Source: Heterodontus francisci
Lineage: Eukaryota
Assembly (NCBI RefSeq): GCF_036365525.1
Contig: NC_090378.1
Coordinates: 124,543,593-124,607,592, forward strand
Direction of reading: 5' to 3'
Length of the DNA: 64,000 nucleotides
Shown: one piece after another, positions 30,101-64,000 of the stretch
Layout of the letters: every line of letters begins with the position of its first letter
Numbering within the stretch: the first letter of the stretch is position 1
Program-made: the position numbers and the translations under genes
Notes under the pieces: generated by a model
What the model was told of the DNA's origin: nothing
The model's input: the letters and a program-made list of their open reading frames with translations, nothing else
Database searches by the model: none

Positions 30101-33100
30101 AGAGGGAGGGATAGAGATCAGATAGAGGGAGGGATGGAGCTCAGATAGAGGGAGGGATGGATTTCAGATAGAGGGAGGGATGGATCACAGACAGAGGGAG
30201 GGATGGAGATCCGATAGAGGGAGGGATGGATCACAGATAGAGGGAGGGATGGAGCTCAGATAGCGAGAGGGATACAGATCAGATAGAGGGAGGGATGCAG
30301 CTCAGAACGAGGGAGGGATGGAGCTCCGATGGAGGGAGGGATGGAGCTCAGATAGAGGGAGGGATGGATTTCAGATAGAGTGAGGGATGGATCACAAATA
30401 GAGGGAGGGATGGAGATCCGATAGAGGGAGGGATGGAGTGCAGATAGAGTGAGGGATGGATCACAGATAGAGGGAGGAATGGAGCTCTGATAGAGGAAGG
30501 GATGGAGATCAGATAGAGGGAGGGGTGCAGCTCAGAACCAGGGAGGCATGGAGCTCCGATGGAGGGAGGGATGGAGCTCAGATAGAGTGAGGGATGGATT
30601 TCAGATAGAGTGAGGGATGGATCACAGATAGAGGGAGGGATGGAGATCCCATAGAGGGAGGGATGTATTTCAGATCGAGGGAGGGATGGATCGCAGATAG
30701 AGGGAGGGATGGAGATCCCATAGAGGGAGGGATGTATTTCAGATCGAGGGAGGGATGGATCGCAGATAGAGGGAGGGAAGGAGATCCGATAGAGGGAGGG
30801 ATGGTGTTCAGATAGGGGGAGGGATGGAGATCCGATAGAGGGAGGGATGTAATTCAGATGGAGGGAGGGATGGATTTCAGACAGAGTGAGGGATGGACCA
30901 CAGATAGAGGGAGGGATGGAGATCGATAGCGGGAGGGATGGAGTTCAGGTAGAGTGAGGGATGGATCACAGATATAGGGAGGGATGGAGATCCGATAGAG
31001 GGAGGGATGGAGTTCAGATAAAGGGAGGGATGGAGCTCAGATAGAGGGAGGGATGGAGTTCAGATAAAGGGAGGGATAGAGATCAGATAGTGGAAGGGAC
31101 CGAGTTAAGATAGAGGGAGGGTGGGATCTCCGACAGAGGGAGGGATGGAGATCCGTTAGAGGTAGGGATGGAGCTCAGATAGAAAGAGGAATGGAGATCA
31201 GATAGAGAGAAGGATGGAGATCAGATAGAGGGAGGGATGGAGATCAGATCGAAGGAGGGATGTGTATCAGATAGAGGGAGGGATGGATTTCAGATAGAGT
31301 GAGGGATGAATCACAGATAGAGGGAGGGATGGAGATCAGATAGAGGGAGGGATGGAGATCCGATAGAGGGAGGAATGGAGGGAGGAATGGAGGTCCGATA
31401 CAGGGAGGGATGGAGGTCAGATATAGGGAGGAATGGAGATCAGATAGATGGAGGCTGCAGTTCAGATAGATGGAGGGATGGATATACGTGAGAGGGAGGG
31501 ATGGAGTTCAGATAGAGGGTGGAATGGAGGGAGGGATGGAGGTCAAATAGAGGGAGGGATGGGGCTCAGATAAAGGGAGGGATGGAGATCAGATAGAGGA
31601 AGGGATGGAGATCAGATAGAGGGAGGGATGGAGATCAGATAGAGGGAGGGATGGAGATTAGATAGAGGGAGGGATGGAGATCAGATAGAGGGAGGGATGG
31701 AGCTCAGATAGAGGAAGGGATGGAAATCAGATAGAGGGAGGGATAGAGATCAGATAGAGGGAGGGATAGAGATCAGATAGAGGGAGGGATAGAGATCAGA
31801 TAGAGGGACGGATGGAGATTAGATAGAGGGAGGGATAGAGTTCAGATAGAGGGAGGGATGGAGATCAGATAGAGGGATGGATGGAGATCAGATAAAGGGA
31901 GGGATGGAGCTCAGATGGAGGGAGGGATAGAGATCAGATAGAGGGAGGGATGGAGATCAGATAGAGGGAGGGATGGAGATCAGATAGAGGGAGGGATGGA
32001 GATCAGATAGAGGGAGGGATGGAGATCAGATAGAGGGAGGGATGGAGATTAGATAGAGGAAGGGATGGAGATCAGATAGAGGGAGGGATGGAGATCAGAT
32101 AGAGGGAGGCTTGGAGATTAGATAGAGGGAGGGATAGAGCTCAGATAGAGGGAGGAATGGAGATCAGATAGAGGAAGGGATGGAGATCCGATAGAGGGAG
32201 GGATGGAGATCAGATAGAGGGAGGGATGGAGATCAGATAGAGGGAGGGATGGAGATTAGATAGGGGGAGGGATAGAGCTCAGATAGAGGGAGGGATGGAG
32301 ATCATGTAGAGGGACGGTTGGAGATTTGATAGAGGGAGTGATGGAGATCAGATAGAGGGAGGGATAGAGCTCAGATAGAGGAAGGGATGGAGATCAGATA
32401 GAGGGAGGGATAGAGCTCAGATAGAGGGAGGGATAGAGATCAGATAGAGGGACGGATGGAGATTAGATAGAGGGAGGGATAGAGCTCAGATAGAGGGAGG
32501 GATGGAGATCAGATAGAGGGAGGGATGGAGATCAGATAAAGGGAGGGATGGAGCTCAGATAGAGGGAGGGATAGAGATCAGATAAAGGGAGGGATGGAGC
32601 TCAGATAGAGGGAGGGATGGATTTCAGATAGAGGGAGGGATGGATCACAGATAGAGGGAGGGATGGAGATCCGATAGAGGGAGGGATGGATCACAGATAG
32701 AGGGAGGGATGGAGCTCAGATAGCGAGAGGGATACAGATCAGATAGAGGGAGGGATGCAGCTCAGAACGAGGGAAGGATGGAGCTCCGATGGAGGGAGGG
32801 ATGGAGCTCCGATGGAGGGAGGGATGGATTTCAGATAGAGTGAGGGATGGATCACAGATAGAGGGAGGGATGGAGATCCGATAGAGGGAGGGATAGAGCT
32901 CAGATAGAGGGAGGGATGGAGATCAGATAGAGGGAGTGATGGAGATCAGATAGAGAGAGGGATGGAGATTAGATACAGGGAGGGATGGAGTTTAGATAGA
33001 GGAAGTGATGGAGATCAGATAGAGAGATGGATTTAGATCAGATAGCGAGAGGGATAGAGATCAGATAAAGGGAGGGATGGAGCTCAGATAGAGGCAGGGA

Positions 33101-36100
33101 TGGATTTCAGATAGAGGGAGGGATGGATCACAGATAGAGGGAGGGATGGAGCTCAGATAGCGAGAGGGATACAGATCAGATAGAGGGAGGGATGCAGCTC
33201 AGAACGAGGGAAGGATGGAGCTCCGATGGAGGGAGGGATGGAGCTCCGATGGAGGGAGGGATGGATTTCAGATAGAGTGAGGGATGGATCACAGATAGAG
33301 GGAGGGATGGAGATCCGATAGAGGGAGGGATAGAGCTCAGATAGAGGGAGGGATGGAGATCAGATAGAGGGAGTGATGGAGATCAGATAGAGAGAGGGAT
33401 GGAGATTAGATACAGGGAGGGATGGAGTTTAGATAGAGGAAGTGATGGAGATCAGATAGAGGGAGGGATGGAGATCAGATAGAGGCAGGGATGGATTTCA
33501 GATAGAGGGAGGGATGGATCACAGATAGAGGGAGGGATGGAGATCCGATAGAGGGAGGGATGGAGTTCAGATAGAGTGAGGGATGGATCACAGATAGAGG
33601 GAGGGATGGAGATCTGATAGAGGGTGGGATGGAGATCAGATAGAGGGAGGGATGGAGATCAGACAGAGAGAGGGATGGAGATCAGATAGAGGGAGGGATG
33701 GAGATCAGATAGAGGGAGGGATGGAGCTCAGATAGAGGGTGGAATGGAGATCAGTTAGAGGAAGGGATGGAGATCAGATAGAGGGAGGGATGGAGATCAG
33801 ATAGAGGGAGGGATGGAGATCAGATAGAGGGAGGGATGGAGATCAGATAGAGGGAGGGATGGAGATCAGATAGAGGGAGGGATGGAGATCAGATAGAGGG
33901 AGGGATGGAGATCAAATAGAGGGAGGTTTCGAGATCAGATAGAGTGAGGGATGGAGATCAGATAGAGGGAGGGATGGAGTGCAGATACAGGGTGGGATGG
34001 AGATCAGATAGAAGGAGGGATGGAGATCAGATAGAGGGAGGTATAGAGATCAGATAGAGGGAGGGATGGAGCTCAGATCGAGGGAGGGATGGAGCTCAGA
34101 TCGAGGGAGGGATGGAGATCAGATAGAGGGAGGGATGGAGATCAGATAGAGGGAGGGATGGAGCTCAGATAGAGGGAGGGATGGAGATCTGATAGAGGGT
34201 GGGATGGAGATCTGATAGAGGGTGGGATGGAGATCTGATAGAGGGTGGGATGGAGATCAGATAGAGGGAGGGATGGAGATCAGACAGAGAGAGGGATGGA
34301 GATCAGATAGAGGGAGGGATGGAGATCAGATAGAGGGAGGGATGGAGCTCAGATAGAGGGAGGGATGGAGATCTGATAGAGGGTGGGATGGAGATCTGAT
34401 AGAGGGTGGGATGGAGATCAGATAGAGGGAGGGATGGAGATCAGACAGAGAGAGGGATGGAGATCAGATAGAGGGAGGGATGGAGATTAGATAGAGGGAG
34501 GGATGGAGATCAGATAGAGGGAGGGATGGAGATCAGATAGAGGGAGGGATGGAGATCAGATAGAGAGAGGGATGGAGATCAGATAGAGAGAGGGATGGAG
34601 ATCAGATAGAGGGAGGGATGGATTTTGGATAGAGGAAGGGATGGAGATCAGATAGAGGGAGGGATGGAGCTCAGATAGATGGACGGATGGAGATTAGATA
34701 GAGGGAGGGATGGAGCTCAGATAGAGGGACGGATGGAGATCAGATAGAGAGAGGGGTAGAGATCAGATAAAGGGAGGGATGGAGCTCAGATAGAGGGAGG
34801 GATAAAGATCAGATAAAGGGAGGGATGGAGCTCAGATATAGGGAGGGATGGATTTCAGATAGAGAGAGGGATGGACAAAGATAGAGGGAGGGATGAACAT
34901 CCGATAGAGGGAGGGATGGATCACAGATATAGGGAGGGATGGAGCTCAGATAGCGAGAGGGATAGAGATCAGATAAAGGGAGGGATGGAGCTCAGATAGA
35001 GGCAGGGATGGATTTCAGATAAAGGGAGGGATGGATCACAGATAGAGGGAGGGATGGAGATCCGACAGAGGGAGGGATGGAGTTCAGATAGAGTGAGGGA
35101 TGGATCACAGATAGAGGGAGGAATGGAGCTCTGATAGAGGGAGGGATGGAGATCAGATAGAAGGAGGGGTGCAGCTCAGAACCAGGGAGGGATGGAGCTC
35201 CGATGGAGGGAGGGATGGAGCTCAGATAGAGTGAGGGATGGATTTCAGATAGAGTGAGGGATGGATCACAGATAGAGGGAGGGATGGAGATCCCATAGAG
35301 GGAGGGATGGAGATCAGATAGAGGGAGGAATGCAGCTCAGAACGAGGGAGGGATGGAGCTCCGATGGAGGGAGGGATGGAGCTCAGATAGAGGGAGGGAT
35401 GGATTTCAGATAGAGTGAGGGATGGATCACAGATAGAGGGAGGGATGGAGATCCTATAGAGGGAGGGATGGAGTTCAGATAGAGTGAGGGATGGATCACA
35501 GATAGAGGGAGGGATGGAGCTCCGATGGAGGGAGGGATGGAGCTCAGATAGAGGGAGGGATGGATTTCAGATAGAGTGAGGGATGGATCACAGATAGAGG
35601 GAGGGATGGAGATCCTATAGAGGGAGGGATGGAGTTCAGATAGAGTGAGGGATGGATCACAGATAGAGGGAGGAATGGAGCTCTGATAGAGGGAGGGATG
35701 GAGCTCTGATAGAGGGAGGGATGGAGATCAGATAGAGGGAGGGGTGCAGCTCAGAACCAGGGAGGGATGGAGCTCCGATGGAGGGAGGGATGGAGCTCAG
35801 ATAGAGTGAGGGATGGATTTCAGATAGAGTGAGGGATGGATCACAGATAGAGGGAGGGATGGAGATCAGATAGAGGGAGGGATGGAGCTCCGATAGAGGG
35901 AGGGATGGATCTCAGATAGAGGGAGGGATGGATCTCAGATAGAGGAAGGGTTGGAGATCAGATAGAGGGAGGGATGGAGATAGGATATAGAGGGAGGGAT
36001 AGACGTCAGATGGAGGGATAGTGCTCTGATAGAGGGACTGATGGAGATCAGATAGAGGGAGGGATGGAGATCAGATAGAGGGAGGGATGGAGCTCAGATA

Positions 36101-39100
36101 GAGGGAGGGATGGTGATCAGATAGAGGGAGGGATGTAGTTCAGATAGAGGGAGGGATGTAGTTCAGATAGAGGGAGGGATGTAGTTCAGATAGAGGGAGG
36201 GATGGAGCTCAGATAGAGGAAGGGATGGAGATCAGATAGAGGAAGGGATGGAGATCAGATAGAGGGTGGGATGGAGATCAGATATAGAGGGAGGGATAGA
36301 TGTCAGATAGAGTGAGGGATGGAGCTCTGATAGAGGGACTGATGGAGATTAGATAGAGGGTGGGATGGAGATCAGATAGAGGGAGGGATGGAGATCAGAT
36401 AGAGGGAGGTATAGAGATCAGATAGAGGGAGGGATGGAGATCAGATAGAGGGAGGGATGGAGATCAGATAGAGGGAGGGATGGAGCTCAGATTGAGGGAG
36501 GGATGGAGATCAGATACAGGGTGGGATGGAGATCAGATAGAGGGAGGTATGGAGATCAGATAGAGGGAGGGATGGAGATCAGATAGAGGGAAGGATGGAG
36601 ATCAGATAGAGGGAAGGATGGAGATAGGATATAGAGGGAGGGATAGATGTCAGATAGAGTGAGGGATGGAGCTCTGATAGAGGGACTGATGGAGATTAGA
36701 TAGAGGGTGGGATGGAGATCAGATAGAGGGAGGGATGGAGATCAGATAGAGGGAGGTATAGAGATCAGATAGAGGGAGGGATGGAGATCAGATAGAGGGA
36801 GGGATGGAGCTCAGATTGAGGGAGGGATGGAGATCAGATACAGGGTGGGATGGAGATCAGATAGAGGGAGGTATGGAGATCAGATAGAGGGAGGGATGGA
36901 GCTCAGATAGAGGGAGGGATGGAGCTCAGATAGAGGGAGGGATGGAGATCAGATAGAGGGAGGTATGGAGATCAGATAGAGGGAGGGATGGAGATCAGAT
37001 AGAGGGAGGGATGGAGATCAGATAGAGGGAGGTATGGAGATCAGATAGAGGGAGTGATGGAGATCAGATAGAGGGAGGGATGGAGATCAGATAGAGGGAG
37101 GGATGGAGATCAGATAGAGGGAGGGATGGAGATCAGATAGAGGGAGGGATGGAGATCAGATTGAGGAAGGGATGGAGATCAGATAGAGGGAGGGATGGAG
37201 CTCAGATAGAGGGAGGGATGGAGATCAGATAGAGGGAGGGATGGAGATCAGATAGAGGGAGGTATGGAGATCAGATAGAGGGAGGGATGGAGATCAGATA
37301 GTGGGAGGGATGGAGATCAGATAGAGGGAGGGATGGAGATCAGATAGAGGGAGGGATGGAGATCAGATAGAGGGAGGGATGGAGCTCAGATAGAGGGAGG
37401 GATGGAGGTCAGATAGAGGGAGGGATGGAGGTCAGATAGAGGGAAGGATGGAGATAGGATATAGAGGGAGGGATAGATGTCAGATAGAGTGAGGGATGGA
37501 GCTCTGATAGAGGGACTGATGGAGATTAGATAGAGGGTGGGATGGAGATCAGATAGAGGGAGGGATGGAGATCAGATAGAGGGAGGTATAGAGATCAGAT
37601 AGAGGGAGGGATGGAGATCAGATAGAGGGAGGGATGGAGCTCAGATTGAGGGAGGGATGGAGATCAGATACAGGGTGGGATGGAGATCAGATAGAGGGAG
37701 GTATGGAGATCAGATAGAGGGAGGGATGGAGATCAGATAGAGGGAGGGATGGAGATCAGATAGAGGGAGGGATGGAGATCAGATCGAGGGAGGGATGGAG
37801 CTCAGATCGAGGGACGGATGGAGATCAGATAGAGGGAGGGATGGAGATCAGACAGAGAGAGGGATGGAGATCAGATAGAGGGAGGGATGGAGCTCAGATA
37901 GAGGGACGGATGGAGATTTGATAGAGGAAGGGATGGAGATCAGATAGAGGGAGGGATGGAGATCAGATAGAGGGAGGGATGGAGCTCAGATAGAGGAAGG
38001 GACGGAGATCAGATAGAGGGAGGGATGGAGATCAAATAGAGGGAGGGATGCAGCTCAGATAGAGAGATGGATGGAGATTAGATAGAGGAAGAGATGGAGA
38101 TCAGATGGAGGGAGGGATGGAGATCAGATAGAGGGAGGGATGCAGCTCAGACAGAGGGAGGGATGGAGATCAGTTAGAGGAAGGTATAGAGATCAGATAG
38201 AGGGAGGGATGGAGATCAGATAGAGGGAGGGATAGACGTCAGATAGAGGGAGGGATGGAGCTCTGATAGAGGGACTGATGGAGATTAAATAGAGGGTGGG
38301 ATGGAGATCAGATAGAGGGAGGGATGGAGATTAGATAGAGGGAGGGATGGAGATCAGATGGAGGGAGGGATGGAGCTCAGATAGATGGACGGATGGAGAT
38401 CAGATAGAGAGAGGGATAGAGATCAGATAAAGGGAGGGATGGTGCTCAGATAGAGGGAGGGATAGAGATCAGATAAAGGGAGGGATGGAGCTCAGATAGA
38501 GGCAGGGATGGATTTCAGATAGAGAGATGGATGGATCACAGATAGAGGGAGGGATGAAGATCCGATAGAGGGAGGGATGGATCACAGATAGAGGGAGGGA
38601 TGGAGCTCAGATAGCGAAAGGAATAGAGATCAGATAAAGGGAAGGATGGAGCTCAGATAGAGGCAGGGATGGATTTCAGATAGAGGGAGGGATAGATCAC
38701 AGATAGAGGGAGGGATGGAGATCCGATAGAGGGAGGGATGGAGTTCAGATAGAGTGAGGGATGGAGTTCAGATAGAGGGAGGGATGGAGTTCAGATAGAG
38801 GGAGGGATGGAGCTATGATAGAGGAAGGGATGGAGATCAGATAGAGGGAGGGATGCAGCTCAGAAAGAGGGAGGGATGGAGCTCCGATGGAGGGAGGGAT
38901 GGAGCTCAGATAGAGGGAGGGATGGATTTCAGATAAAGTGAGGGATGGATCACAGATAGAGGGAGGGATGGAGTTCAGATAGAGTGAGGGATGGATCACA
39001 GATAGAGGGAGGAATGGAGCTCTGATAGTGGAAGGGTTGGAGATCAGATAGAGGGAGGGATGGAGATAGGATATAGAGGGAGGGATAGACGTCAGATAGA

Positions 39101-42100
39101 GGGAGGGATGGTGCTCTGACAGAGGGACTGATGGAGATCAGATAGAGGGAGGGATGGAGATCAGATAGAGGGAGGGGTGCAGCTCAGAAGCAGGCAGGGA
39201 TGGAGCTCCGATGGAGGGAGGGATGGAGCTCAGATAGAGTGAGGGATGGATTTCAGATAGAGTGAGGGATGGATCACAGATAGAGGGAGGGATGGAGATC
39301 CCATAGAGGGAGGGATGGAGATCAGATAGAGGGAGGGATGGAGATCAGATAGAGGGAGGGATGGAGCTCAGATAGAGGGACGGATGGAGATTTGATAGAG
39401 GAAGGGATGGAGATCAGATAGAGGGAGGGATGGAGATCAGATAGAGGGAGGGATGGAGCTCAGACAGAGGGAGGGATGGAGCTCAGACAGAGGGAGGGAT
39501 GGAGATCAGTTAGACGAAGGTATAGAGATCAGATAGAGGGAGGGATGGAGATCAGATAGAGGGAGGGATAGACGTCAGATAGAGGGAGGGATGGAGCTCT
39601 GATAGAGGGACTGATGGAGATTAAATAGAGGGTGGGATGGAGATCAGATAGAGGGAGGGATGGAGATTAGATAGAGGGAGGGATGGAGATCAGATGGAGG
39701 GAGGGATGGAGCTCAGATAGATGGACGGATGGAGATCAGATAGAGAGAGGGATAGAGATCAGATAAAGGGAGGGATGGAGATCAGATAGAGGGAGGGATG
39801 GATTTCAGATAGAGAGATGGATGGATCACAGATAGAGGGAGGGATGAAGATCCGATAGAGGGAGGGATGGATCACAGATAGAGGGAGGGATGGAGCTCAG
39901 ATAGCGAGAGGAATAGAGATCAGATAAAGGGAAGGATGGAGCTCAGATAGAGGCAGGGATGGATTTCAGATAGAGGGAGGGATAGATCACAGATAGAGGG
40001 AGGGATGGAGATCCGATAGAGGGAGGGATGGAGTTCAGATAGAGTGAGGGATGGAGTTCAGATAGAGTGAGGGATGGATCACAGATAGAGGGAGGGATGG
40101 AGCTATGATAGAGGAAGGGATGGAGATCAGATAGAGGGAGGGATTGAGATCAGATAGAGGGAGGGATGGAGCTCCGATGGAGGGAGGGATGGAGCTCAGA
40201 TAGAGGGAGGGATGGATTTCAGATAAAGTGAGGGATGGATCACAGATAGTGGGAGGGATGGAGATCCGATAGAGGGAGGGATGGAGTTCAGATAGAGGGA
40301 GGGATGGAGTTCAGATAGAGGGAGGGATGGATCACAGATAGAGGGAGGAATGGAGCTCTGATAGAGGAAGGGTTGGAGATCAGATAGAGGGAGGGATGGA
40401 GATCAGATAGAGGGAGGGATGGAGATAGGATATAGAGGGAGGGATAGACGTCAGATAGAGGGAGGGATGGTGCTCTGACAGAGGGACTGATGGAGATCAG
40501 ATAGAGGGAGGGATGGAGATCAGATAGAGGGAGGGGTGCAGCTCAGAACCAGGGAGGGATGGAGCTCCGATGGAGGGAGGGATGGAGCTCAGATAGAGTG
40601 AGGGATGGATTTCAGATAGAGTGAGGGATGGATTTCAGATAGAGTGAGGGATGGATCACAGATAGAGGGAGGGATGGAGATCCCATAGAGGGAGGGATGG
40701 AGCTCAGATAGAGGGAGGGATGGAGCTCAGATAGAGGGACGGATGGAGATCTGATAGAGGAAGGGATGGAGATCAGATAGAGGGAGGGATGGAGATCAGA
40801 TAGAGGGAGGGATGGAGATCAGATAGAGGGAGGGATGGAGCTCAGATAGAGGAAGGGATGGAGATCAGATAGAGGGAGGGATGGAGATCAGATAGAGGGA
40901 GGGATGTAGTTCAGATAGAGGGAGGGATGGAGCTCAGATAGAGGAAGGGATGGAGATCAGATAGAGGGAGGGATGGAGATCAGATAGAGGGAGGGATGGA
41001 GCTCAGATTGAGGAAGGGATGGAGATAGGATATAGAGGGAGGGATAGACGTCAGATAGAGGGAGGGATGGAGCTCTGATAGAGGGACTGATGGAGATTAG
41101 ATAGAGGGTGGGATGGAGATCAGATAGAGGGAGGGATGGAGATCAGATAGAGGGAGGGATGGAGATCAGATAGAGGGAGGGATGGAGATCAGATAGAGGG
41201 AGGGATGGAGATCAGATCGAGGGAGGGATGGAGATCATATAGAGGGAGGTATAGAGATCAGATAGAGGGAGGGATGGAGCTCAGATAGAGGGAGGGATGG
41301 AGCTCAGATCGAGGGAGGGATGGAGATCAGATAGAGGGAGGGATGGAGCTCAGATAGAGGGAGGGATGGAGATCAGATAGAGGGTGGGATGGAGATCAGA
41401 TAGAGGGTGGGATGGAGATCAGATAGAGGGAGGGATGGAGATCAGACAGAGAGAGGGATGGAGATCAGACAGAGGGAGGGATGGAGATCAGATAGAGGGA
41501 GGGATGGAGATCAGATAGAGGGAGGGATGGAGATCAGATAGAGGGAGGGATGGAGATCAGATAGAGGGAGGAATGGAGCTCAGATAGAGGGTGGGATGGA
41601 GATCAGTTAGAGGAAGGGATGGAGATCAGATAGAGGGAGGGATGGAGATCAGATAGAGGGAGGGATGGAGATCAGATAGAGGGAGGGATGGAGCTCAGAT
41701 AGAGGGAGGGATGGAGCTCAGATAGAGGGAGGGATGGAGATCAGATAGAGGGAGGGATGGAGATCAGATAGAGGGAGGGATGGAGCTCAGATAGAGGGAG
41801 GGATGGATTTCAGATAGAGGGAGGGATGGATTTCAGATAGAGGGAGGGATGGATTTCAGATAGAGGGAGGGATGGATTTCAGATAGAGGGAGGGATGGCT
41901 CACAGATCGAGGGAGGGATGGAGATCAGATAGAGGGAGGTGTATTGATCAGATAGAGGGAGGGATGCAGCTCAGATAGAGGGAGGGATGGAGATCAGATA
42001 GAGGGAGGGTTGGAGATCAGATAGAGGGAGGGATGGAGCTCAGATAGAGGGAGGGATGGAGCTCAGATAGAGGGAGGGATGGAGATCAGATAGAGGGAGG

Positions 42101-45100
42101 GATGGAGATCAGTTAGAGGAAGGGATGGAGATCAGTTAGAGGAAGGGATGGAGTTCCGTTAGAGGAAGGGATGGAGATCAGATAGAGGGAGGGATGGAGC
42201 TCAGATAGAGCGAGGGACGGAGATCAGATAGAGGGAGGGATGGAGATCAGATAGAGGGAGGGATGGAGATCAGATAGAGGGAGGGATGTAGCTCAGATAG
42301 AGGGGGGGATGTAGCTCAGATAGAGGGATGGATGGAGATTAGATAGAGGAAGGGATGGAGATCAGATGGAGGGAGGGATGGAGATCAGATAGAGGGAGGG
42401 ATGCAGCTCAGACAGAGGGAGGGATGGAGATCAGTTAGAGGAAGGGATGAGGATCAGATAGAGGGAGGGATGGAGCTCAGATAGAGGGAGGGATGGAGAT
42501 CAGATAGAGGGAGGAATGGAGATCAGTTCGAGGAAGGGATGGAGCTCAGTTAGAGGAAGGGATGGAGATCAGATAGAGGGAGGGATGGAGCTCAGATAGA
42601 GGGAGGGATGGAGATCAGATAGAGGGAGGGATGGAGATCAGACAGAGGGAGGGATGGAGATCAGATAGAGGGAGGGATGCAGCTCAGATAGAGGGATGGA
42701 TGGAGATTAGATAGAGGGAGGGATTTAGATCAGCTAGAGGGAGGGATGGATTTCAGATAGAGGAAGGGATGGATTTCAGATAGAGTGAGGGATGGATCAC
42801 AGATAGAGGGAGGGATGGAGATCAGATAGAGGGAGCTATAGAGATCAGATAGAGGGAGGGATGCAGCTCAGATAGAGGGATGGATGGAGATTAGATAGAG
42901 GAAGGGATGGAGATTAGATAGAGGAAGGGATGGAGATCAGATAGAGGGAGGGATGGAGATCAGATAGAGGGAGGGATGGAGATCAGATCCAGGAAGGGAT
43001 GCAGATCAGATAGAGGAAGGGATTTAGATCAGATAGAGGGAGGGATGGATTTCGGATAGAGGGAGGGATGGATCACAGATAGAGGGAGGGATGGAGAACC
43101 GATAGAGTGAGGGATGGAGAACCGATAGAGTGAGGGATGGAGTTCAGATAGAGTGAGGGTTGGATCACAGATAGAGGGAGGGATGGAGATCCGATAGAGG
43201 AATGAATGTAGCTCAGTTCAGGAGAGGGATAGAGATCAGATAGATGGAGGGATGGAGATCAGATAGAGGGAGGGATGGAGATCAGATAGAGTGAGGGATG
43301 GATCACAGATAGAGGGAGGAATGGAGATCCGATAGAGGGAGGGATGGAATTCAGATAGAGTGAGGGATGGATCACAGATAGAGGGAGGGATGGAGATCCG
43401 ATAGAGGGAGGGATGAAGTTCAGATAAAGGGAGGGATGGAGCTCAGAAAAAGGGAGGAATGGAGATCAACTTGAAGGAGTGATGGAGCTCAGATCGAGGG
43501 AGGAATGGTGGTCAGATAGAGGGAGGTATGGAGATCTGTTAGATGTAGTGATGGAGCTCAGGGAGGGTGAGGGATGGACATCAGTTTGAGTGAATGATGG
43601 AGATCAGATAGAGGTAGGGTTGAACCTCATATAGAGAGAGGGATGGAGATCAGATAGAGAGAGGGAGGGAGATCAGATAGAGGGAGAGATGGAGCTCAGA
43701 TAGAGGGAGGGATGGTGGTCTGATGGAGGGAGGGATGGAGCTCAGAAAAAGGGAGGTATGGTGTACAGATAGAGGGAGGGATGATCCTCAGTTAGAAGGA
43801 GCGATGGAGATCAGATAGAGGGAGGGATGGAAATGAGATGGAGGGAGGGATGGAGCTTAGATAGAGAGAGGGATAGAGATCAGATAGCGGGAGGGATGGA
43901 TTTAAGATAGAGGGAGGGAGGGATCTCTGACAGAGGGAGGGATGGAGATCGAATAGAGGGAGGGATGGAGCTCAGATAGAGGAAGGGATGGAGATCGGAT
44001 AGAGAGAGGGATGGAGATCAGATAGAGGGAGGGATGGATTTTATATAGCGTCAGGCATGAATCACAGATAGAGGGAGGGATGGAGATCAGATAGAGGGAG
44101 GGATGGATTTCAGATAGAGAGAGGGATGGAGATCTGATAGAGAGAGGGATTGAGATCAGATAGAGGGATTGATGGAGATCAGATAGAGGGAGTGATGGAG
44201 ATCAGATGGAGGGAGGGATGGAGATAGGATAGAGGGAGCGATGGATATCAGATGGAGGGAGGAATGGAGTTCAGATAGAGGGAGGGATGGATCACAGATA
44301 GAGGGAGGGATGGAGATCCGATAGAGGGAGGGAAGGAGTTCAGATAGAGGGAGGGATGGAGTTCAGATAGAGGGAGGGATGGAGTTCAGATAGAGGGAGG
44401 GATGGAGTTCAGATAGAGGGAGGGATATGTATCAGATAGAGGGATGGATGGAGATCAGATAGAGGGAGGGATGGATTTCTGATCGAGTGAGGGATGGATC
44501 ACAGATAGAGGGAGGGATGGAGATCCGATAGAGGGAGAGATGGAGTTCAGATAGAGTGCGGGATGGATCACAGATAGAGGGAGGGATGGAGATCCGATAG
44601 TGGGAGCGATGGAGTTCAGATAAAGGGAGGGATGGAGCTCTGAAAAAGGGAGGAATGGAGATCAGCTAAAGGGAGGGATGGAGCTCAGATAGAGGGAGGG
44701 ATGGAGGTCAGATAGAGGGAGGTATGGAGCTCCGATAGAGGGAGGTATGGAGCTCAGATAGAGGGAGGGATGGAGCTCAGATAGAGGGAGGGATGGATGT
44801 CGGATAGAGGGAGGGATGGAGATAAGATAGAGGGAGGTATGGAGATCAGATAGAGGGAGGGATGGAATTCAGATAGAAGGAGGAATGGGTCTCAGATAGA
44901 GGGAGGGATGGATCTCAGATAGAGGGAGGGATGTTGGGAGGGATCGAGGTCAGATAGAGGGAGTTTTGGATCTCAGATAGATGGAGGGATGGAGATCAGA
45001 TAGATGGAGGGATGGAATTCAGATAGAAGGAAGAATGGATCTCAGATAGAGGGAGGGATGTTGGGAGGGATCGAGGTCAGATAGAGGGAGGCATGGAGAT

Positions 45101-45567
45101 CTGATAGAGGGAGGGATGGAGATCTGATAGAGGGAGGGATGGAGGTAAGATAGAGGGAGGAAAGGAAATCAGATGGAGGGAAGTATCGAGATCAGATGGA
45201 GGGCGGGATGGAGATCCTATAGAGGGTGGAATGGAGATCGGATAGGGGTAGGGATGGAGATCAGATAGAGGGAGGGATAGAGATCAGATAGAGGTAGGAA
45301 TGGAGATCAGATAGAGGTAGGAATGGAGATCAGATAGAGGTAGGAATGGAGATCAGATAGAGGGAGTGATTGAGATCAGTTAGAGCTAGGGATGGAGCTC
45401 CGATAGAGGGAGGGATGGAGGTCAGATAGAGGGAGGAATGGAGATCAAATAGAGGGAGGGATGGAGCTCAGATAGAGGGAGGAATGGAGGTCAGATCGAG
45501 AGAGGGATGGAGATCAGATAGAGGGAGGGATGGAGCTCGCATATAGGGAGGGATGGAGTTCAGGGAG
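6141..45567. repeat. 23-bp G/purine-rich satellite, ~1700 copies (~39.4 kb), with higher-order structure
   Basis: Consensus AGATAGAGGGAGGGATGGAGATC (11 G, 8 A, 3 T, 1 C) in one orientation throughout. Common variants are GAGCTCAG, GAGATTAG, GAGTTTAG, GATCACAG and GATTTCAG. More degenerate toward the right edge. Confidence 0.98.
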
Positions 45568-51106: not shown

Positions 51107-51738
51107 CAACGTGCATTTATAGAGCAGTGTTAATATACAAACAGTCACAAGATGATTCACAGAGCCGCAGTAGGAGGAACGGGGAGGGGGTGAGGGGTCT
51201 TTAGGAACAGTGATCAAAGGCTTGGGTGAAAGGATGGAGTTTGATGGAGCAGAGAGAGACCCGAAGAGGGGGGAGGGATTAATAGCGGGGTGTTCAGAGA
51301 GCAGGGCCGAGGCATCTGAAGACCCTGCTGTCAATGGTGGGATGAAGGAAGCAGCGATGGGCAGGAGAGCAGACTCAGAAGATGGAAGAGCGAGGGAGGG
51401 AATGTGAGTATGCTGGAGGAGGCAGAGGTAGGGAGGAGTGAGGCTATGGAGGGAAACAGAGGTCATTGAGATCATGAGTAACAGGGTCAGTGAGGTCAGG
51501 GATAGTGATGGTGTGAGACAGGGTATGGACGACTGCATTTCAGACATGTTGGAGTTTATGGAGCGTGGATGAAGGAAGCCGCAAGAGGACATAAGAATAA
51601 ACCAGTCAGGAGGCGAGACAAGCAGGGATAAGGGTTTGTGTGGTCAAGAGGCTGACGTAGTGTAGAGACGGGCAATGTTGTGGAGATGGAAAAAACAGGC
51701 TGAAATGATGGAGAGGATGTGGAGCTTGAAGCTCAGCT
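51107..51738 (-). mobile_element. Old L2-clade LINE 3' fragment
   Basis: CAACGTGCATTTATAGAGC resembles the L2 3' terminus. Collinear similarity to 49985-50340 (GAGGTAGGGAGGAGTGAGGCTATGGAGGGA; GGCAATGTTGTGGAGATGGAAA...GAAGCTCAGCT). Confidence 0.6.
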
Positions 51739-51746
51739 ACTGGATG

Positions 51747-52446
51747 TCCAGTGGGACGGAGGCCCATGTTTACTGGTCCCTATTGGAGGTCCAGTGGGAC
51801 GGAGGCCCATGTTTACTGGTCCCTATTGGAGGTCCAGTGGGACGGAGCCCCATGTTTACTGGTCCCTACCAGAGATTCCAGTGGGACGGAGGCCCATGTT
51901 TACTGGTCCCTATTGGAGGTCCAGTGGGAAGGAGGCCTATGTTTCCTGGTCCCTATTGGAAGTCCAGTGGGAAGGAGGCCCATGTTTACTGGTCCCTACT
52001 GGAGGTCCAGTGGGAAGGAGGCCCATGTTTACTGGTCCCTATTGGAAGTCCAGTGGGAAGGAGGCCCATGTTTACTGGACCCTATTGGAAGTCCAGTGGG
52101 AAGGAGGCCCATGTTTATTGGTCCCTTTTGGAGGTCCAGTGGGGAGGAGGTGCATGTTTACTGGTCCCTATTGGAGGTCCAGTGGGAAGGGGGCCCATGT
52201 TTACTGGTCCCTATTGGAGGTCCAGTGGGAAGGAGGCCTATGTTTACTAGTCTCTACCAGAGAATCCAGTGGGAAGGAGGCCCATGTTTACTGGTCCCTT
52301 TTGGAGGTCCAGTGGGGAGGAGGCCCATCTTTACTGGTCCCTATTGGAGGGTCCAGTGGGAAGGAGGCCCATGTTTACTGGTCCCTATTGGAGGTCCAGT
52401 GGGTAGGAGGCCCATGTTTACTGGTCCCTATTGGAGGTCCAGTGGA
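51747..52446. repeat. 43-bp minisatellite, ~16 copies
   Basis: Unit TCCAGTGGGAAGGAGGCCCATGTTTACTGGTCCCTATTGGAGG. TCCA starts at 51747 and 51790 give the period. Confidence 0.95.
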
Positions 52447-53560: not shown

Positions 53561-53655
53561 GGAAGTGAGAGTTGCTGACGTGCCTTTCTCTGGGTGATGC
53601 CATTTACATACTGAGAAACAGGCAGTCAGACTCTCACAGGCTGCAGCTTTATAAA
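53559..53655 (+). promoter_or_regulatory. Ig light-chain V promoter
   Basis: PU.1-like GAGGAAGTG (53559), CRE-like TGACGT (53576), octamer variant ATTTACAT (53602-53609; canonical ATTTGCAT) and TATAAA (53650-53655), ~65 nt before the ATG. Confidence 0.75.
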
Positions 53656-53715: not shown

Positions 53716-53764
53716 ATGATTTCACCCATCCAGCTGATCTGGCCTCTGGCATTCTGCGTCGCAG
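53716..53764 (+). CDS. IGKV: Ig kappa-type light-chain V gene, leader exon (MISPIQLIWPLAFCVAG)
   Basis: Kozak GCACCATG, hydrophobic signal peptide and phase-1 donor G|GTACAA. The 186-bp intron (53765-53950) ends in a pyrimidine tract plus CAG. The leader resembles shark kappa (NS4/type III) leaders. Confidence 0.93.
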
Positions 53765-53950: not shown

Positions 53951-54249
53951 GTATCAGTGGAGACACCATCATGACCCAGTTTCCACCGGCACTGTCAGTG
54001 ACACTGGGGCAGAACGCAACTATCACCTGTACGGCCAGCCAGTCCGTAGGCAAATATGTAGCTTGGTATCAGCAGCGAGAAGGTCAGAAACCCACTCTCC
54101 TGATCTATTTTGCAACAACTCGTTACACAGGAATATCGGAACGATTCACCGGAACTCAACAGAACACCAAATACACTCTGACAATCAGTAATGTACAGAA
54201 TGAGGATGTTGCAGATTATTACTGTCAGCAGTTTGACAGCTACCCTCTA
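53951..54249 (+). CDS. IGKV: Ig kappa-type light-chain V exon, germline unrearranged, intact frame
   Basis: (G)ISG-DTIMTQFPPALSVTLGQNATITCTASQSVGKYVAWYQQREGQKPTLLIYFATTRYTGISERFTGTQQNTKYTLTISNVQNEDVADYYCQQFDSYPL. Conserved Cys (54028), Trp (54064) and DYYC Cys (54223), kappa-style CQQ...P and a 12-RSS. Confidence 0.95.
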
Positions 54250-54277
54250 CACAGTGAGACAGAGCCTTACAAAAACC
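54250..54277 (+). other. Recombination signal sequence, 12-bp spacer, perfect consensus
   Basis: CACAGTG (54250-54256), AGACAGAGCCTT (12 bp), ACAAAAACC (54269-54277). Confidence 0.98.
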
Positions 54278-54282
54278 TCAAT

Positions 54283-57200
54283 ACACACAGTCCCACCTCC
54301 CGCACTGACACATCCCACAGTTATATATAATATATAATATTGGACACACAGTCCCACCTCCTGTACTGACACATCCCACTGTTATACATAATATATAATA
54401 ATGGACACACAGTCCCACCTCCTGTACTGACACATCGCACAGTTATACCTTCTATATAATAATGGACACACAGTCCCACCTCCTGTACTGACACATCGCA
54501 CAGTTATACCTTCTATATAATAATGGACACACAGTCCCACCTCCTGTACTGACACATCCCACACTTATATCTAACATATAATAATGGACACACAGTCCCA
54601 CCTCCTGTACTGACACATCCCACAGTTATATATAATATATAATAATGGACACAAAGTCCCACCTCCTGTACTGACACATCCCACAGTTATATATAGTATA
54701 TAATATTGGACAGACAGTCCCACCTCCTGGACTGACACATCCCACAGTATATATAATATATAATAATGGACACACAGTCCCACCTCCTGTACTGACACAT
54801 CCCACAGTTATATATAATATATAATACTGGACACACAGTCCCACATCCTGTACTGAAACATCCCACAGTAAAAAATAATATATAATAATGGACACACAGT
54901 CCCACCTCCTGTACTGACACATCCCACACTTATAGCTAACATATAATAATGGACACACAGTTCCACCTCCTGTCCTGACACATCCCACACTTATATCTAA
55001 CATATAATAATGGACACACAGTCCCACCTCCTGTACTGACACATCCCACACTTATATCTAACATATAATAATGGACACACAGTCCCACCTCCTGTCCTGA
55101 CACATCCCACACTTATATCTAACATATAATATTGGACACACATTCCCACCTCCTGTACTGACACATCCCAAACTTATATCTAACATATAATAATGGACAC
55201 ACAGTCCCACCTCCTGTACTGACACATCCCACAGTTATAAATAATATATAATAATGGACACAAAGTCCCACCTCCTGTACTGACACATCCCAAAGTTATA
55301 TATAATATATAATAATAGACACACAGTCCCACCTCCTGCACTGACACATCCCACAGTTATATATAAGATATAATAATGGACACACAGTCTCACCTCCTGT
55401 ACTGACACATCCCACAGTTATATATAATATATAATAATGAACACACAGTCCCACCTCCTGTACTGACAGATACCACAGTTATATATAATATATAATAATG
55501 GACACACAGTCCCACCTCCTGTACTGACAGATACCACAGTTATATATAATATATAATAATGGACACACAGTCCCACCTCCTGTACTGACACATCCCACAG
55601 TTATAAATAATATATAATAATGGACACAAAGTCCCACCTCCTGTACTGACACATCCCAAAGTTATATATAATATATAATAATAGACACACAGTCTCACCT
55701 CCTGTACTGACACATCCCACAGTTATAAATAATATATAATAATGGACACAAAGTCCCACCTCCTGTACTGACACATCCCAAAGTTATATATAATATATAA
55801 TAATAGACACACAGTCTCACCTCCTGTACTGACACATCCCACAGTTATAAATAATATATAATAATGGACACACAGTCCCACCTCCTGCACTGACACATCC
55901 CACAGTTATATATAATATATAATAATGGACACACAGTCCCACCTCCTGTACTGACACATCCCACAGTTATATATAATATATAATAATGGACACACAGTCC
56001 CACCTCCTGTACTGACACATCCCACAGTTATATATAATATATAATAATGGACACACAGTCCCACCTCCAGTACTGACACATCCCACAGTTATATATAATA
56101 TATAATAATGGACACACAGTCCCACCTCCAGTACTGACACATCCCACAGTTAAATATAATGTATAATAATGGACACACAGTCCCACCTCCTGCACTGACA
56201 CATCCCACAGTTATATATAATATATAATAATGGACACACAGTCCCACCTCCTGCACTGACACATCCCACAGTTATATATAATATATAATAATGGACACAC
56301 AGTCCCACCACCTGCACTGACACATCCCACAGTTATATATAATATATAATAAAGGACACACAGTCCCACCTCCTGTACTGACACATCCCACAGTTATATA
56401 TAATATATAATAATGGACACACAGTCCCACCTCCTTTACTGACACATCCCACAGTTATATATAATATATAATAAAGGACACAGTCCCACCTCCTGTACTG
56501 ACCCATCCCACAGTTATATATAATATATAATAATGGACACACAGTCCCACCTCCTTTACTGACACATCCCACAGTTATATATAATATATAATAAAGGACA
56601 CAGTCCCACCTCCTGTACTGACACATCCCACAGTTATATATAATATATAATAATGGACACACAGTCCCACCTCCTTTACTGACACATCCCACAGTTATAT
56701 ATAATATATAATAATGGACACACAGTCCCACCTCCTGTCCTGACACATTTCCCAGTTATATATAATACATAAGAATGGACACACAGTCCCACTTCCTGTA
56801 CTGACACATCCCACAGTTATATATAATATATAATAATGGACACACAGTCCCACCTCCTGCACTGACACATCCCACAGTTATATATAATATATAATAATGG
56901 ACACACAGTCCCACCACCTGCACTGACACATCCCACAGTTATATATAATATATAATAAAGGACACACAGTCCCACCTCCTGTACTGACACATCCCACAGT
57001 TATCTATAATATATAATAATGGACACACAGTCCCACCTCCTGTCCTGACACATCCCACAGTTATATATAATACATAATAATGGACACACAGTCCCACTTC
57101 CTGTACTGACACATCCCACAGTTATATATAATAGATAATAATGGACACACAGTCCCACCTCCCGTACTGACACATCCCACAGTTATATATAATATATAAT

Positions 57201-60200
57201 AATGGACACACAGTCCCACCTCCTGTACTAACACATCCTACAGTTATATATAATATATAATAATGGACACACAGTCCCACCTCCTGTCCTGACACATCCC
57301 ACAGTTATATATAATACATAATAATGGACACACAGTCCCACCTCCTGTCCTGACACATCCCACAGTTATATATAATACATAATAATGGACACACAGTCCC
57401 ACCTCCAGTACTGACACATCCCACAGTTATATATAATATATAATAATGGACACACAGTCCCACCTCCTGTCCTGACACATCCCACAGTTATATATAATAT
57501 TTAATAATGGACACACAGTCCCACTTCCTGTACTGACACATCCCACAGTTATATATAATAGATAATAATGGACACACAGTCCCACCTCCTGTACTGACAC
57601 ATCCCACAGTTATATATAATATATAATAATGGACACACAGTCCCACCTCCTGTACTAACACATCCTACAGTTATATATAATATATAATAATGGACACACA
57701 GTCCCACCTCCTGTCCTGACACATCCCACAGTTATATATAATACATAATAATGGACACACAGTCCCACCTCCTGTACTGACACATCCCACAGTTATATAT
57801 AATATATAATAATGGACACACAGTCCCACCTCCTGTCCTGACACATCCCACAGTTATATATAATACATAATAATGGACACACAGTCCCACCTCCAGGACT
57901 GACACATCCCACAGTTATATATAATACATAATAATGGACACACAGTCCCACTTCCTGTACTGACACATCCCACAGTTATATATAATAAATAATAATGGAC
58001 ACACAGTCCCACCTCCTGTACTGACACGTCCCACATTTATATATAATATATAATATTGGAAACAAAGTCCCACCTCCTGTACTGACACATCCCACAGTTA
58101 TATATAATAGATAATAATGGACACACAGTCCCACCTCCTGTACTGACACATCCCACAGTTATATATAATAGATAATAATGGACACACAGTCCCACCTCCT
58201 GTACTGACACATCCCACAGTTATATATAATAAATAATAATGGACACACAGTCCCACCTCCTGTACTGACACATCCCACAGTTATATATAATATATAATAT
58301 TGGAAACAAAGTCCCACCTCCTGTACTGACACATCCCACAGTTATATATAATAGATAATAATGGACACACAGTCCCACCTCCTGTACTGACACATCCCAC
58401 AGTTATATATAATATATAATATTGGAAACAAAGTCCCACCTCCTGTACTGACACATCCCACAGTTATCTATAATATATAGTAATGGACACACAGTCCCAC
58501 CTCCTGTACTGACACATCCCACAGTTATATATAATAAATAATAATGGACACACAGTCCCACCTCCTGTACTGACACGTCCCACATTTATATATAATATAT
58601 AATAATGGACACACAGTCCCACCTCCTGTACTGACACATCCCAAAGTTATATATAATATATAATAATAGACACACAGTCCCACCTCCTGCACTGACACAT
58701 CCCACAGTTATATATAAGATATAATAATGGACACACAGTCTCACCTCCTGTACTGACACATCCCACAGTTATATATAATATATAATAATGAACACACAGT
58801 CCCACCTCCTGTACTGACAGATACCACAGTTATATATAATATATAATAATGGACACACAGTCCCACCTCCTGTACTGACAGATACCACAGTTATATATAA
58901 TATATAATAATGAACACACAGTCCCACCTCCTGTACTGACAGATACCACAGTTATAAATAATATATAATAATGGACACAAAGTCCCACCTCCTGTACTGA
59001 CACATCCCAAAGTTATATATAATATATAATAATAGACACACAGTCCCACCTCCTGCACTGACACATCCCACAGTTATATATAATATATAATAATGAACAC
59101 ACAGTCCCACCTCCTGTACTGACAGATACCACAGTTATATATAATATATAATAATGAACACACAGTCCCACCTCCTGTACTGACAGATACCACAGTTATA
59201 AATAATATATAATAATGGACACAAAGTCCCACCTCCTGTACTGACACATCCCAAAGTTATATATAATATATAATAATAGACACACAGTCCCACCTCCTGC
59301 ACTGACACATCCCACAGTTATATATAATATATAATAATGGACACACAGTCTCACCTCCTGTACTGACACATCCCACAGTTATATATAATATATAATAATG
59401 AACACACAGTCCCACCTCCTGTACTGACAGATACCACAGTTATAAATAATATATAATAATGGACACAAAGTCCCACCTCCTGCACTGACAGATACCACAG
59501 TTATATATAATATATAATAATGGACACACAGTCCCACCTCCTGTACTGACAGATACCACAGTTATATATAATATATAATAATGGACACAAAGTCCCACCT
59601 CCTGTACTGACACATCCCACAGTTATAAATAATATATAATAATGGACACAAAGTCCCACCTCCTGTACTGACACATCCCAAAGTTATATATAATATATAA
59701 TAATAGACACACAGTCCCACCTCCTGCAATGACACATCCCACAGTTATATATAAGATATAATAATGGACACACAGTCTCCCCTCCTGTACTGACACATCC
59801 CAAAGTTATATATAATATATAATAATGGACACACAGTCACACCTCCTGTACTGACACATCCCACAGTTATAAATAATATATAATAATGGACACAAAGTCC
59901 CACCTCCTGTACTGACACATCCCAAAGTTATATATAATATATAATAATAGACACACAGTCCCACCTCCTGCAATGACACATCCAACAGTTATATATAAGA
60001 TATAATAATGGACACACAGTCTCCCCTCCTGTACTGACACATCCCAAAGTTATATATAATATATAATAATAGACACACAGTCCCACCTCCTGCACTGACA
60101 CATCCCACAGTTATATATAAGATATAATAATGGACACACAGTCCCACCTCCCGCACTGACACATCCCACAGTTATATATAATATATAATAATGGACACAA

Positions 60201-63200
60201 AGTCCCACCTCCTGTACTGACCCATCCCACAGTTATATATAATATATAATAATGGACACACAGTCCCACCTCCTGTACTGACACATCCCACAGTTATATA
60301 TAATATATAATAATGAACACACAGTCCCACCTCCTGTACTGACAGATACCACAGTTATATATAATATATAATAATGGACACACAGTCCCACCTCCTGTAC
60401 TGACAGATACCACAGTTATATATAATATATAATAATGGACACACAGTCCCACCTCCTGGACTGACTCATCCCACAGTTATAGATAATATATAATAATGGA
60501 CACACAGTCCCACCTCCTGGACTGACACATCCCACAGTTATATATAATATATAATAATGAACACACAGTCCCACCTCCTGTACTGACAGATACCACAGTT
60601 ATATATAATATATAATAATGGACACACAGTCCCACCTCCTGTACTGACACATCCCACAGTTATATATAATATATAATAATGAACACACAGTCCCACCTCC
60701 TGTACTGACAGATACCACAGTTATATATAATATATAATAATGGACACACAGTCTCACCTCCTGTACTGACACATCCCACAGTTATATATAATATATAATA
60801 ATGAACACACAGTCCCACCTCCTGTACTGACAGATACCACAGTTATATATAATATATAATAATGGACACAAAGTCCCAACTCCTGTACTGACCCATCCCA
60901 CAGTTATATATAATATATAATAATGGACACACAGTCCCACCTCCTGTACTGACAGATACCACAGTTATATATAATATATAATAATGGACACAAAGTCCCA
61001 ACTCCTGTACTGACCCATCCCACAGTTATATATAATATATAATAATGGACACACAGTCCCACCTCCTGTACTGACTCATCCCACAGTTATATATAATATA
61101 TAATAATGGACACACAGTCCCACCTCCTGTACTGACACATCCCACAGTTATATATAGTATATAATAATGGACACACAGTGCCACCTCCTGTACTGACACA
61201 TCACACAATTATATATAGTATATAATAATGGACACACATTCCCACCTCCAGGATTGACACGTCCCACAGTTATATATAATAGATAATAATGGACACACAG
61301 TCCCACCTCCTATACTGACACATCCCACAGTTATATATAATATATAATAATGGACAGACAGTCCCACCTCCTGCACTGACATATGCCGCAGTTATATAGA
61401 AGATATAATAATGGACACACAGTCCCACCTCCTGTACTGACATATCCCACAGTTATATATAATATATAATATTGGACAGACAGTCCCACCTCCTATATTG
61501 ACACATCCCACAGTTATATATAATATATAATAATGGACACACAGTCCCACCTCCTGTACTGACACATCCCACAGTTATAAATAATATATAATAATGGACA
61601 CAAAGTCCCACCTCATGTACTGACACATCCCAAAGTTATATATAATATATAATAATAGACACACAGTCCCACCTCCTGCACTGACACATCCCACAGTTAT
61701 ATATAAGATATAATAATGGACACACAGTCTCACCTCCTGTACTGACACATCCCACAGTTATATATAATATATAATAATGGACACACAGTCGCACCTCCTG
61801 CACTGACACTTCCCACAGTTATATATAATATATAATAATGGACACACAGTCCCACCCCCTTTACTGACACATCCCACACTTATATCTAATATATAATAAT
61901 GGTCACACAGTCCCACCTCCTGTCCTGACACATCCCACAGTTATATATAATACATATTAAAGGACACACAGTCCCACCTCCTGCACTGACAGATACCACA
62001 GTTATATATAATATATAATAATGGACACAAAGTCCCACCTCCTTTACTGACACATCCCACAGTTATATATAATATATAATAAAGGACACACAGTCCCACC
62101 TCCTGTACTGACCCATCCCACAGTTATATATAATATATAATAATGGACACACAGTCCCACCTCCTTTACTGACACATCCCACAGTTATATATAATATATA
62201 ATAAAGGACACACAGTCCCACCTCCTGTACTGACCCATCCCACAGTTATATATAATATATAATAATGGACACACAGTCCCACCTCCTGTATTGACACATC
62301 CCACAGTTATATATAATATATAATAAAGGACACACAGTCCCACCTCCTGTACTGACCCATCCCACAGTTATATATAATATATAATAATGGACACACAGTC
62401 CCACCTCCTTTACTGACACATCCCACAGTTATATATAATATATAATAATGGACACACAGTCCCACCTCCTTTACTGACACATCCCACAGTTATATATAAT
62501 ATATAATAAAGGACACAGTCCCACCTCCTGTACTGACCCATCCCACAGTTATATATAATATATAATAATGGACACACAGTCCCACCTCCTTTACTGACAC
62601 ATCCCACAGTTATATATAATATATAATAATGGACACACAGTCCCACCTCCTGTACTGACCCATCCCACAGTTATATATAATATATAATAATGGACACACA
62701 GTCCCACCTCCTTTACTGACACATCCCACAGTTATATATAATATATAATAAAGGACACACATTCCCACCTCCTTTACTGACACATCCCACAGTTATATAT
62801 AATATATAATAAAGGACACAGTCCCACCTCCTGTACTGACCCATCCCACAGTTATATATAATATATAATAATGGACACACAGTCCCACCTCCTTTACTGA
62901 CACATTCCACAGTTATATATAATATATAATAATGGACACAAAGTCCCACCTCCTGTACTGACACATCCCACACTTATATCTAACATATAATAATGGTCAC
63001 ACAGTCCCACCTCCTGTCCTGACACATTTCCCAGTTATATATAATACATAAGAATGGACACACAGTCCCACTTCCTGTACTGACACATCCCACAGTTATA
63101 TATAATATATAATAAAGGACACACAGTCCCACCTCCTGCACTGACACATCCCACAGTTATATATAATATATAATAATGGACACACAGTCCCACCACCTGC

Positions 63201-64000
63201 ACTGACACATCCCACAGTTATATATAATATATAATAAAGGACACACAGTCCCACCTCCTGCACTGACACATCCCACAGTTATATATAATATATAATAATG
63301 GACACACAGTCCCACCTCCTGCACTGACACATCCCACAGTTATATATAATATATAATAAAGGACACACAGTCCCACCTCCTGCACTGACACATCCCACAG
63401 TTATATATAATATATAATAAAGGACACACAGTCCCACCTCCTGCACTGACACATCCCACAGTTATATATAATATATAATAAAGGACACACAGTCCCACCT
63501 CCTGCACTGACACATCCCACAGTTATATATAATATATAATAATGGACACACAGTCCCACCACCTGCACTGACACATCCCACAGTTATATATAATATATAA
63601 TAAAGGACACACAGTCCCACCTCCTGCACTGACACATCCCACAGTTATATATAATATATAATAATGGACACACAGTCCCACCTCCTTTACTGACACATCC
63701 CACAGTTATATATAATATATAATAAAGGACACAGTCCCACCTCCTGTACTGACCCATCCCACAGTTATATATAATATATAATAATGGACACACAGTCCCA
63801 CCTCCTTTACTGACACATCCCACAGTTATATATAATATATAATAATGGACACACAGTCCCACCTCCTGTACTGACCCATCCCACAGTTATATATAATATA
63901 TAATAATGGACACACAGTCCCACCTCCTTTACTGACACATCCCACAGTTATATATAATATATAATAAAGGACACACATTCCCACCTCCTTTACTGACACA
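54283..64000. repeat. 61-bp tandem array, ~160 copies, continues past the right edge
   Basis: Unit GGACACACAGTCCCACCTCCTGTACTGACACATCCCACAGTTATATATAATATATAATAAT. The pattern shifts 1 nt per 60-nt line, giving a 61-bp period. A few units are 59 bp. Confidence 0.98.

Follow-up and report, generated by a model that had tools for sequence, protein, structure and literature searches.

What happens to an antibody gene when a long satellite begins directly behind its recombination signal? The question is raised by a 64,000-nucleotide stretch of the shark Heterodontus francisci (contig NC_090378.1, positions 124,543,593 to 124,607,592; hereafter the window, whose numbering we use throughout). Here a variable (V) gene of kappa type ends in a recombination signal sequence with a 12-bp spacer (12-RSS; 54250-54277, plus strand) and is followed by a 61-bp satellite that fills the rest of the window (54283..64000, plus strand; 159.5 copies, 93% matches). 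A first-pass annotation had taken the 12-RSS as real, which its perfect heptamer and perfect nonamer bear out, and had noticed that the satellite unit resembles a 23-RSS. From this it proposed that the array acts as a field of decoys for the RAG recombinase or inactivates the cluster, loosely like a deleting element. We favor another answer, to which we give a probability of roughly 0.6: the satellite is a passenger, kappa recombination became long-range through it, and its resemblance to a 23-RSS is accidental.

Long V-J intervals in the kappa family

The window gene belongs to a kappa family on contig C8 (115.7-124.8 Mb) in which 28 V, 28 joining (J), and 28 constant (C) matches pair in order, one of each per cluster, with the V 12-RSS and the J 23-RSS convergent. 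All 28 V frames are open, all 28 C exons lack stop codons, and none of the 28 clusters is joined in the germline. The 61-bp array begins 5 bp past the V nonamer in every cluster; it is common to all 28 and not special to the window cluster. Measured between search matches, V and J lie 7,435 to 216,549 bp apart (median 48,850; summed 1.585 Mb), compared with 502-524 bp in nurse-shark NS4 clusters, whose leader intron is 186 bp (PMC2193156). The short interval, of about 0.5 kb, is the only trait in which the family departs from the known NS4-like type. The J-side end of the array was read in 25 of the 28 clusters, where the array stops 2.7-5.4 kb short of J. The J signal itself is non-consensus, CACACTG-23-ACAATATCC in most clusters, and near-invariant over the 28.

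The window cluster has the longest interval of all, 216,649 bp from heptamer to heptamer. In window numbering extended past position 64000, its J signal lies at 270,860 and its C exon at 280,957, about 10 kb past J. Its array of about 3,340 units spans 211 kb and stops 5.4 kb before J, and this J-side end is truncated by an insertion. The array also contains an interruption of 436 bp, present in three copies, and an insert of 2.9 kb (window-extended 69740, 73198, 76778, and 139465). Along C8 the clusters stand back to back, 15 on the minus strand and 13 on the plus strand. Modules are repeated along the contig, with members of closely similar array length, from recent segmental duplication or partly from assembly.

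The satellite looks locus-specific. Genome-wide, all 20 matches to a probe joining the V nonamer to the head of the unit were kappa clusters. Exact 46-mers of the unit numbered 2,164, possibly a lower bound, and the first 100 of them listed all fell in the kappa locus; extrapolation from the kappa arrays alone predicts about 2,870. The unit showed no homology to the sequence behind the signals of other isotypes (best local scores 14-28). Of 12 clusters sampled from another split light chain, on contig C46, 11 have V-J distances of 381-382 bp, and the twelfth had no J signal by the filter used. We take this light chain to be probably sigma-2; about 40 of its clusters lie at C46:15.0-16.9 Mb with a spacing of about 16.5 kb. 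A protein search of other sharks with the frame that reads through the V RSS gave no candidate. The literature, as far as it was accessible and including PMC5192425, PMC12227049, PMC13320880, and PMC12205992, yielded no satellite-filled V-J interval; long kappa V-J distances may nonetheless have been noted in the species before. We regard long-range V-J joining in a shark "minilocus" as a stronger finding than the proposed decoy.

The family still rearranges. In contigs from all four sequencing runs V ends run into J, and in three of the four the leader is joined by splicing. The runs are not on record as RNA; since the contigs are spliced, we treated them as RNA-like. Their source may be a different individual or a close relative, and the identity cut-off for reads was 85%; the evidence therefore speaks for the family and not for the window cluster. 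Junctions at CACAGTT were examined from the V side, and no strand-changing joint appeared among the 13 listed V-end joints, with 79 loose ends lying outside that set. One contig runs from V through the RSS into the first satellite unit and represents either a sterile transcript or DNA. Bases private to the window V made up at most 0.1-0.9% at six positions, and two clusters with 31- and 56-kb intervals were similarly low. A ranking of clusters by contig depth was rejected, since depth cannot rank genes and some alleles in the runs match none of the 28 assembled V genes. RAG would still join V to J by deleting the entire array, which would make shark kappa recombination long-range.

The 23-RSS look-alike and its origin

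Most units carry two heptamer-like motifs, CACAGTC and CACAGTT, 30/31 bp apart, and the sites named in the first-pass annotation read as it claimed. The main form, CACAGTT-23-ACACAGTCC, matches the nonamer at 6/9 positions, has four mismatches in all, and occurs first at 54316..54354 (plus strand) and again at 55962. The variant CACAGTT-23-ACAAAGTCC (7/9, three mismatches) occurs first at 54621..54659 (plus strand) and again at 58276, and is the best candidate for a RAG assay. Among the 159 window units, 92 have the main form and 18 the variant, 110 together. The variant is nearly private to the window cluster, with 163 of 3,341 units there against 43 of 6,553 elsewhere; it reaches 1% in three of the 27 other clusters and never stands beside a perfect heptamer in the units read. 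The CACAGTG at 61174..61180 (plus strand), the sole perfect one in the window part of the array, is present as reported, yet it takes the place of a CACAGTC and lacks a nonamer at both 12 and 23 bp.

How unusual the resemblance is was gauged with 20,000 dinucleotide shuffles of the unit, at a threshold of heptamer at least 6/7 plus nonamer at least 6/9. Shuffled units reached this threshold in 72 cases at 23 bp, in 125 at 12 or 23 bp, and in 379 when ±1 bp was allowed. The match is above chance for one unit, yet it was picked post hoc. The look-alike is real and uncommon, but it goes back to a single ancestral event that tandem copying multiplied. None of the three other satellites in the window contains a site with up to four mismatches, and the other satellites beside the window cluster have sites with 5-8 mismatches or lack CAC. 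A search that pre-selected the heptamer and part of the spacer led to an unrelated 37-bp minisatellite (C29:51740685-51745898, 135 copies). It has 69 sites within three mismatches of a 12-RSS, including 25 copies of CACAGTG-12-ACACAATCC, and no V match in 30 kb. The unit of this minisatellite is similar to the kappa V signal with its flank and may be RSS-derived or convergent. The minisatellite contains better look-alikes, here of a 12-RSS, and we count it, partly pre-selected as it is, for an accidental origin of such motifs.

The annotation's own caveat, that the nonamer match may be a by-product of the periodicity, holds. The nonamer-like word is positions 3-11 of the following unit, and at all 24 array ends that could be read, what lies 23 bp past the last heptamer is unique sequence, which mismatches the nonamer at 7-9 positions. 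The absence of the nonamer at these ends indicates that tandem duplication made the signal: a single-copy ancestor would have had no 23-RSS-like signal, and head-to-tail duplication would have created one. The array thus likely arose from the 61 bases behind the V signal of an ancestral cluster. It would then have been copied along with the clusters as they duplicated, its length changing by unequal exchange.

Conservation of the look-alike was assessed over the columns of the unit, with the other 27 clusters weighted equally. Neither the nonamer (p=0.52), nor the heptamer (p=0.084), nor both together (p=0.19) stood out. No selection against a better nonamer was seen, the C>A change ranking 129 of 183 variants. 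Among about 9,700 steps shorter than 100 bp, 9,337 keep the 61-bp spacing. The nonamer is not conserved, and the look-alike is likely an unselected junction product.

RAG, the array, and competing explanations

Could RAG cut the look-alike? The unit's heptamer with its next two bases, CACAGTTAT, has an activity of 0.067%, against 0.097 for the J signal, 0.096 for V, and 0.012 for CACAGTCCC, in a SARP-seq table measured in mouse/human cells in a 12-RSS context (PMC9723617). The same word is entered there for mouse T-cell receptor alpha J38, and the unit thus has both the CAC and the active heptamer of a functional 23-RSS by that assay. In a 23-RSS model of 262,144 nonamers (PMC12711392), the J nonamer ranks 7 (0.759) and ACAAAGTCC ranks 25 (0.696); ACACAGTCC lies outside the top 1000, where the cut-off is 0.558. 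An additive estimate of recombination signal information content, on that source's own heptamer and spacer, gives about -45.0 for the main nonamer and -41.1 for that of J. The main unit passes the filter of at most four mismatches for strong cryptic RSSs (PMC11153149). Its spacer is near-pure A/T, and spacers can shift RSS activity 10-20-fold (PMC212687). Since the heptamer counts as usable in the mouse tables, and the rare ACAAAGTCC as a good nonamer, occasional RAG cutting is plausible. Of the first-pass proposal, then, the array as a possible RAG target survives, helped by the non-consensus J signal, and a decoy function of the array is unsupported. The look-alikes share the direction of the V signal, would be weaker than the J signal, and would be cut at most occasionally.

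Several observations weigh against the passenger explanation. A match of this quality is rare in shuffled units (72-379 of 20,000). The window cluster's V-J interval contains 2,353 sites with up to four mismatches and 236 with up to three, all in V orientation and none facing V. In the other 27 clusters the CAC of the CACAGTT heptamer is the least variable three-column window (1.21%, base-matched p=0.017), a value that is one of eight tests on non-independent clusters. The mouse data would not rule the look-alike sites out. RNA contigs would miss most inactivating joints, and 79 loose ends lie outside the joints listed. Finally, the units read number about 9,900 of an estimated 24,500.

Traces of recombination with the array were also looked for in the germline assembly; RAG is active in shark germ cells (PMC2193156). 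None of 9,909 units was inverted, and none of 14 pattern matches on C8 was a V signal joint. No trace of V inversion or of J-to-array joining was seen, in tests that are weak and insensitive.

The alternative that survives best, though we consider it unlikely, is that the array is an accidental but consequential RAG sink. By analogy with mammalian RAG, a V 12-RSS paired with an array 23-site would invert and destroy the cluster, and J-bound RAG joining convergent CACs by deletion would offer a second route. In the window cluster's interval, 15,823 CACs lie on the V strand, where they converge with the J signal, and 298 on the opposite strand. In mouse, scanning RAG uses cryptic sites in the convergent orientation (PMC11153149), and RAG bound at J could likewise form joints between J and the array. 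The 236 sites with up to three mismatches have the same mismatch count as the true J signal, and the heptamer and variant-nonamer scores given above also speak for a sink. Since either reaction destroys the only V or J signal of its cluster, long arrays would lower cluster output. Against this, just six twelve-spaced sites with up to four mismatches face J, the A/T spacer may change activity, the V ends listed contain no strand-changing joint, and the accessible literature has no report of RAG scanning in sharks.

Far less probable is an array under selection as a decoy or in the manner of a deleting element, which would titrate RAG or edit the kappa clusters. That the array adjoins the true signal in every cluster, matches an RSS above chance, keeps its 61-bp step, and hints at a conserved CAC would fit such a role. 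Yet the nonamer is junction-made and unconserved, the best variant is nearly confined to one cluster, and array length ranges about 60-fold. The other split isotype has no such array, nor would it fit, as an array, into the 500-bp nurse-shark interval. All 28 array-bearing clusters are intact and the family makes V-J joints, which also counts against a cluster inactivator. The mouse RS is a single element 3' of C that acts by deletion; the array differs from it in where it lies, how it is oriented, and how many copies it has, against the loose likeness to a deleting element that the first-pass annotation had drawn. That the array evolved as a decoy or deleting element is therefore unlikely.

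We give similarly little credence to the idea that array lengths or cluster number were inflated by assembly. Near-identical sets of clusters do lie on opposite strands, two with an equal distance of 27,273 bp. However, units carry cluster-specific variants and embedded inserts, paired clusters are near-equal but unequal (65,931/65,992 and 123,628/124,035 bp), and the shortest intervals, read whole, are 7-10 kb. That the unit is an amplified RSS-proximal CTCF site whose array shapes V-J looping is just as improbable: its 11/14 match to the consensus (PMC6746451), 12 bp past the nonamer, was equalled by 1,057 of 20,000 shuffles (5.3%), only 559 of 7,860 units reach 12 or more, and the matching columns are among the most variable (p=0.89).

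A bolder and unlikely reading would be that a shark light-chain isotype was turned into a long-range locus by satellite expansion, with the array as a tandem field of cryptic RAG sites. This broader claim is speculative. Were it true, array length and variant content would be a heritable dial on the use or destruction of each of the 28 clusters, which could be one reason that not every shark has kappa as its dominant light chain. In the textbook case, shark clusters recombine at distances of a few hundred bases, with no contraction of the locus (PMC2435157). The 28 kappa clusters, near-identical and alike in promoter and signals, differ chiefly in how far V lies from J and in the number of cryptic sites in between. 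They form a natural series for studying what part distance, scanning, and cryptic RSSs play in the choices of RAG, in the most ancient lineage that has antibodies. Polymerase chain reaction across germline V-J intervals and short-read assemblies would miss these kappa genes.

The window gene and known systems

The window gene has a complete set of V features on the plus strand. The word ATTTACAT at 53602..53609, which we take to be an octamer-like promoter element, is the same in all 10 clusters checked, and a TATAAA (53650-53655) lies 3' of it. The leader exon (53716..53764) has an ATG and a GT donor, and the contigs splice it to V over 186 bp. The V exon (53951..54249) is an open frame with light-chain V matches in PDB and 28 paralogues on C8. 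Its assignment as kappa-type, NS4/type III-like, draws on the 186-bp leader intron, the light-chain and kappa matches in PDB, and a framework that is presumably NS4-like. This V is among the most divergent of the 28, with several private bases, and framework 3 reads SQQN or TQQN in all 28. At C8:117.59 Mb the leader splice donor is AT; it is GT in the other nine of ten clusters checked.

Upstream of V, an unrelated 23-bp satellite extends over 39 kb (6142..45563, plus strand) and an unrelated 43-bp minisatellite occupies 51737..52445 (plus strand), both free of RSS look-alikes. Long satellites are common around the window V, the 23-bp array being one example. At least six other satellites (units of 36, 23, 43, 21, 68, 26, and 45 bp) flank the cluster or lie inside its J-C intron, those in the window at 1-2456, 6142-45563, and 51737-52445. 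Elsewhere, an orphan kappa J at C2:125446227 has a degenerate signal, and the 10 kb upstream of it contain no array. At C36:41.6 Mb, two V genes have a perfect 12-RSS, with no J signal found within about 2.4 kb.

Among known systems, the mammalian VH genes have RSS-associated CTCF sites (PMC6746451), and the unit likewise has a CTCF-like word behind the V nonamer. Unlike the VH sites, this word matches at 11/14, not above chance, is variable, and lies on the strand opposite V, so that the unit has no strong, conserved CTCF motif just past the nonamer. Also related are the cryptic RSSs and RAG off-target CAC sites (PMC11153149, PMC9723617, PMC12711392), which share with the main unit a partial heptamer and nonamer; the array differs in being tandemly amplified, with about 2,350 copies on one strand of a single V-J interval. 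It would work at most as a field of such cryptic sites. Mouse RS and the human kappa-deleting element (PMC2212498) are non-coding, RSS-like, able to pair with V kappa, and inactivating, as the array might be. RS, however, is a single, conserved element that lies about 25 kb 3' of C kappa and inactivates by deletion, whereas the array consists of thousands of copies between V and J in V orientation, neither single nor downstream of C kappa.

The nearest relative is the nurse-shark kappa light chain, NS4/type III (PMC2193156, PMC5192425), which has the same single V, J, and C, the same facing 12-RSS and 23-RSS, and the same 186-bp leader intron. There V and J are about 500 bp apart and several clusters are germline-joined; here 7-217 kb, mostly of one satellite, separate them, and no cluster is joined. 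The shark "minilocus" model (PMC2435157) likewise describes independent single-segment clusters. Heavy-chain immunoglobulin segments in sharks are separated by about 400 bp, and the argument against long-range contraction builds on this short distance, whereas the kappa genes described here must join over tens to hundreds of kilobases.

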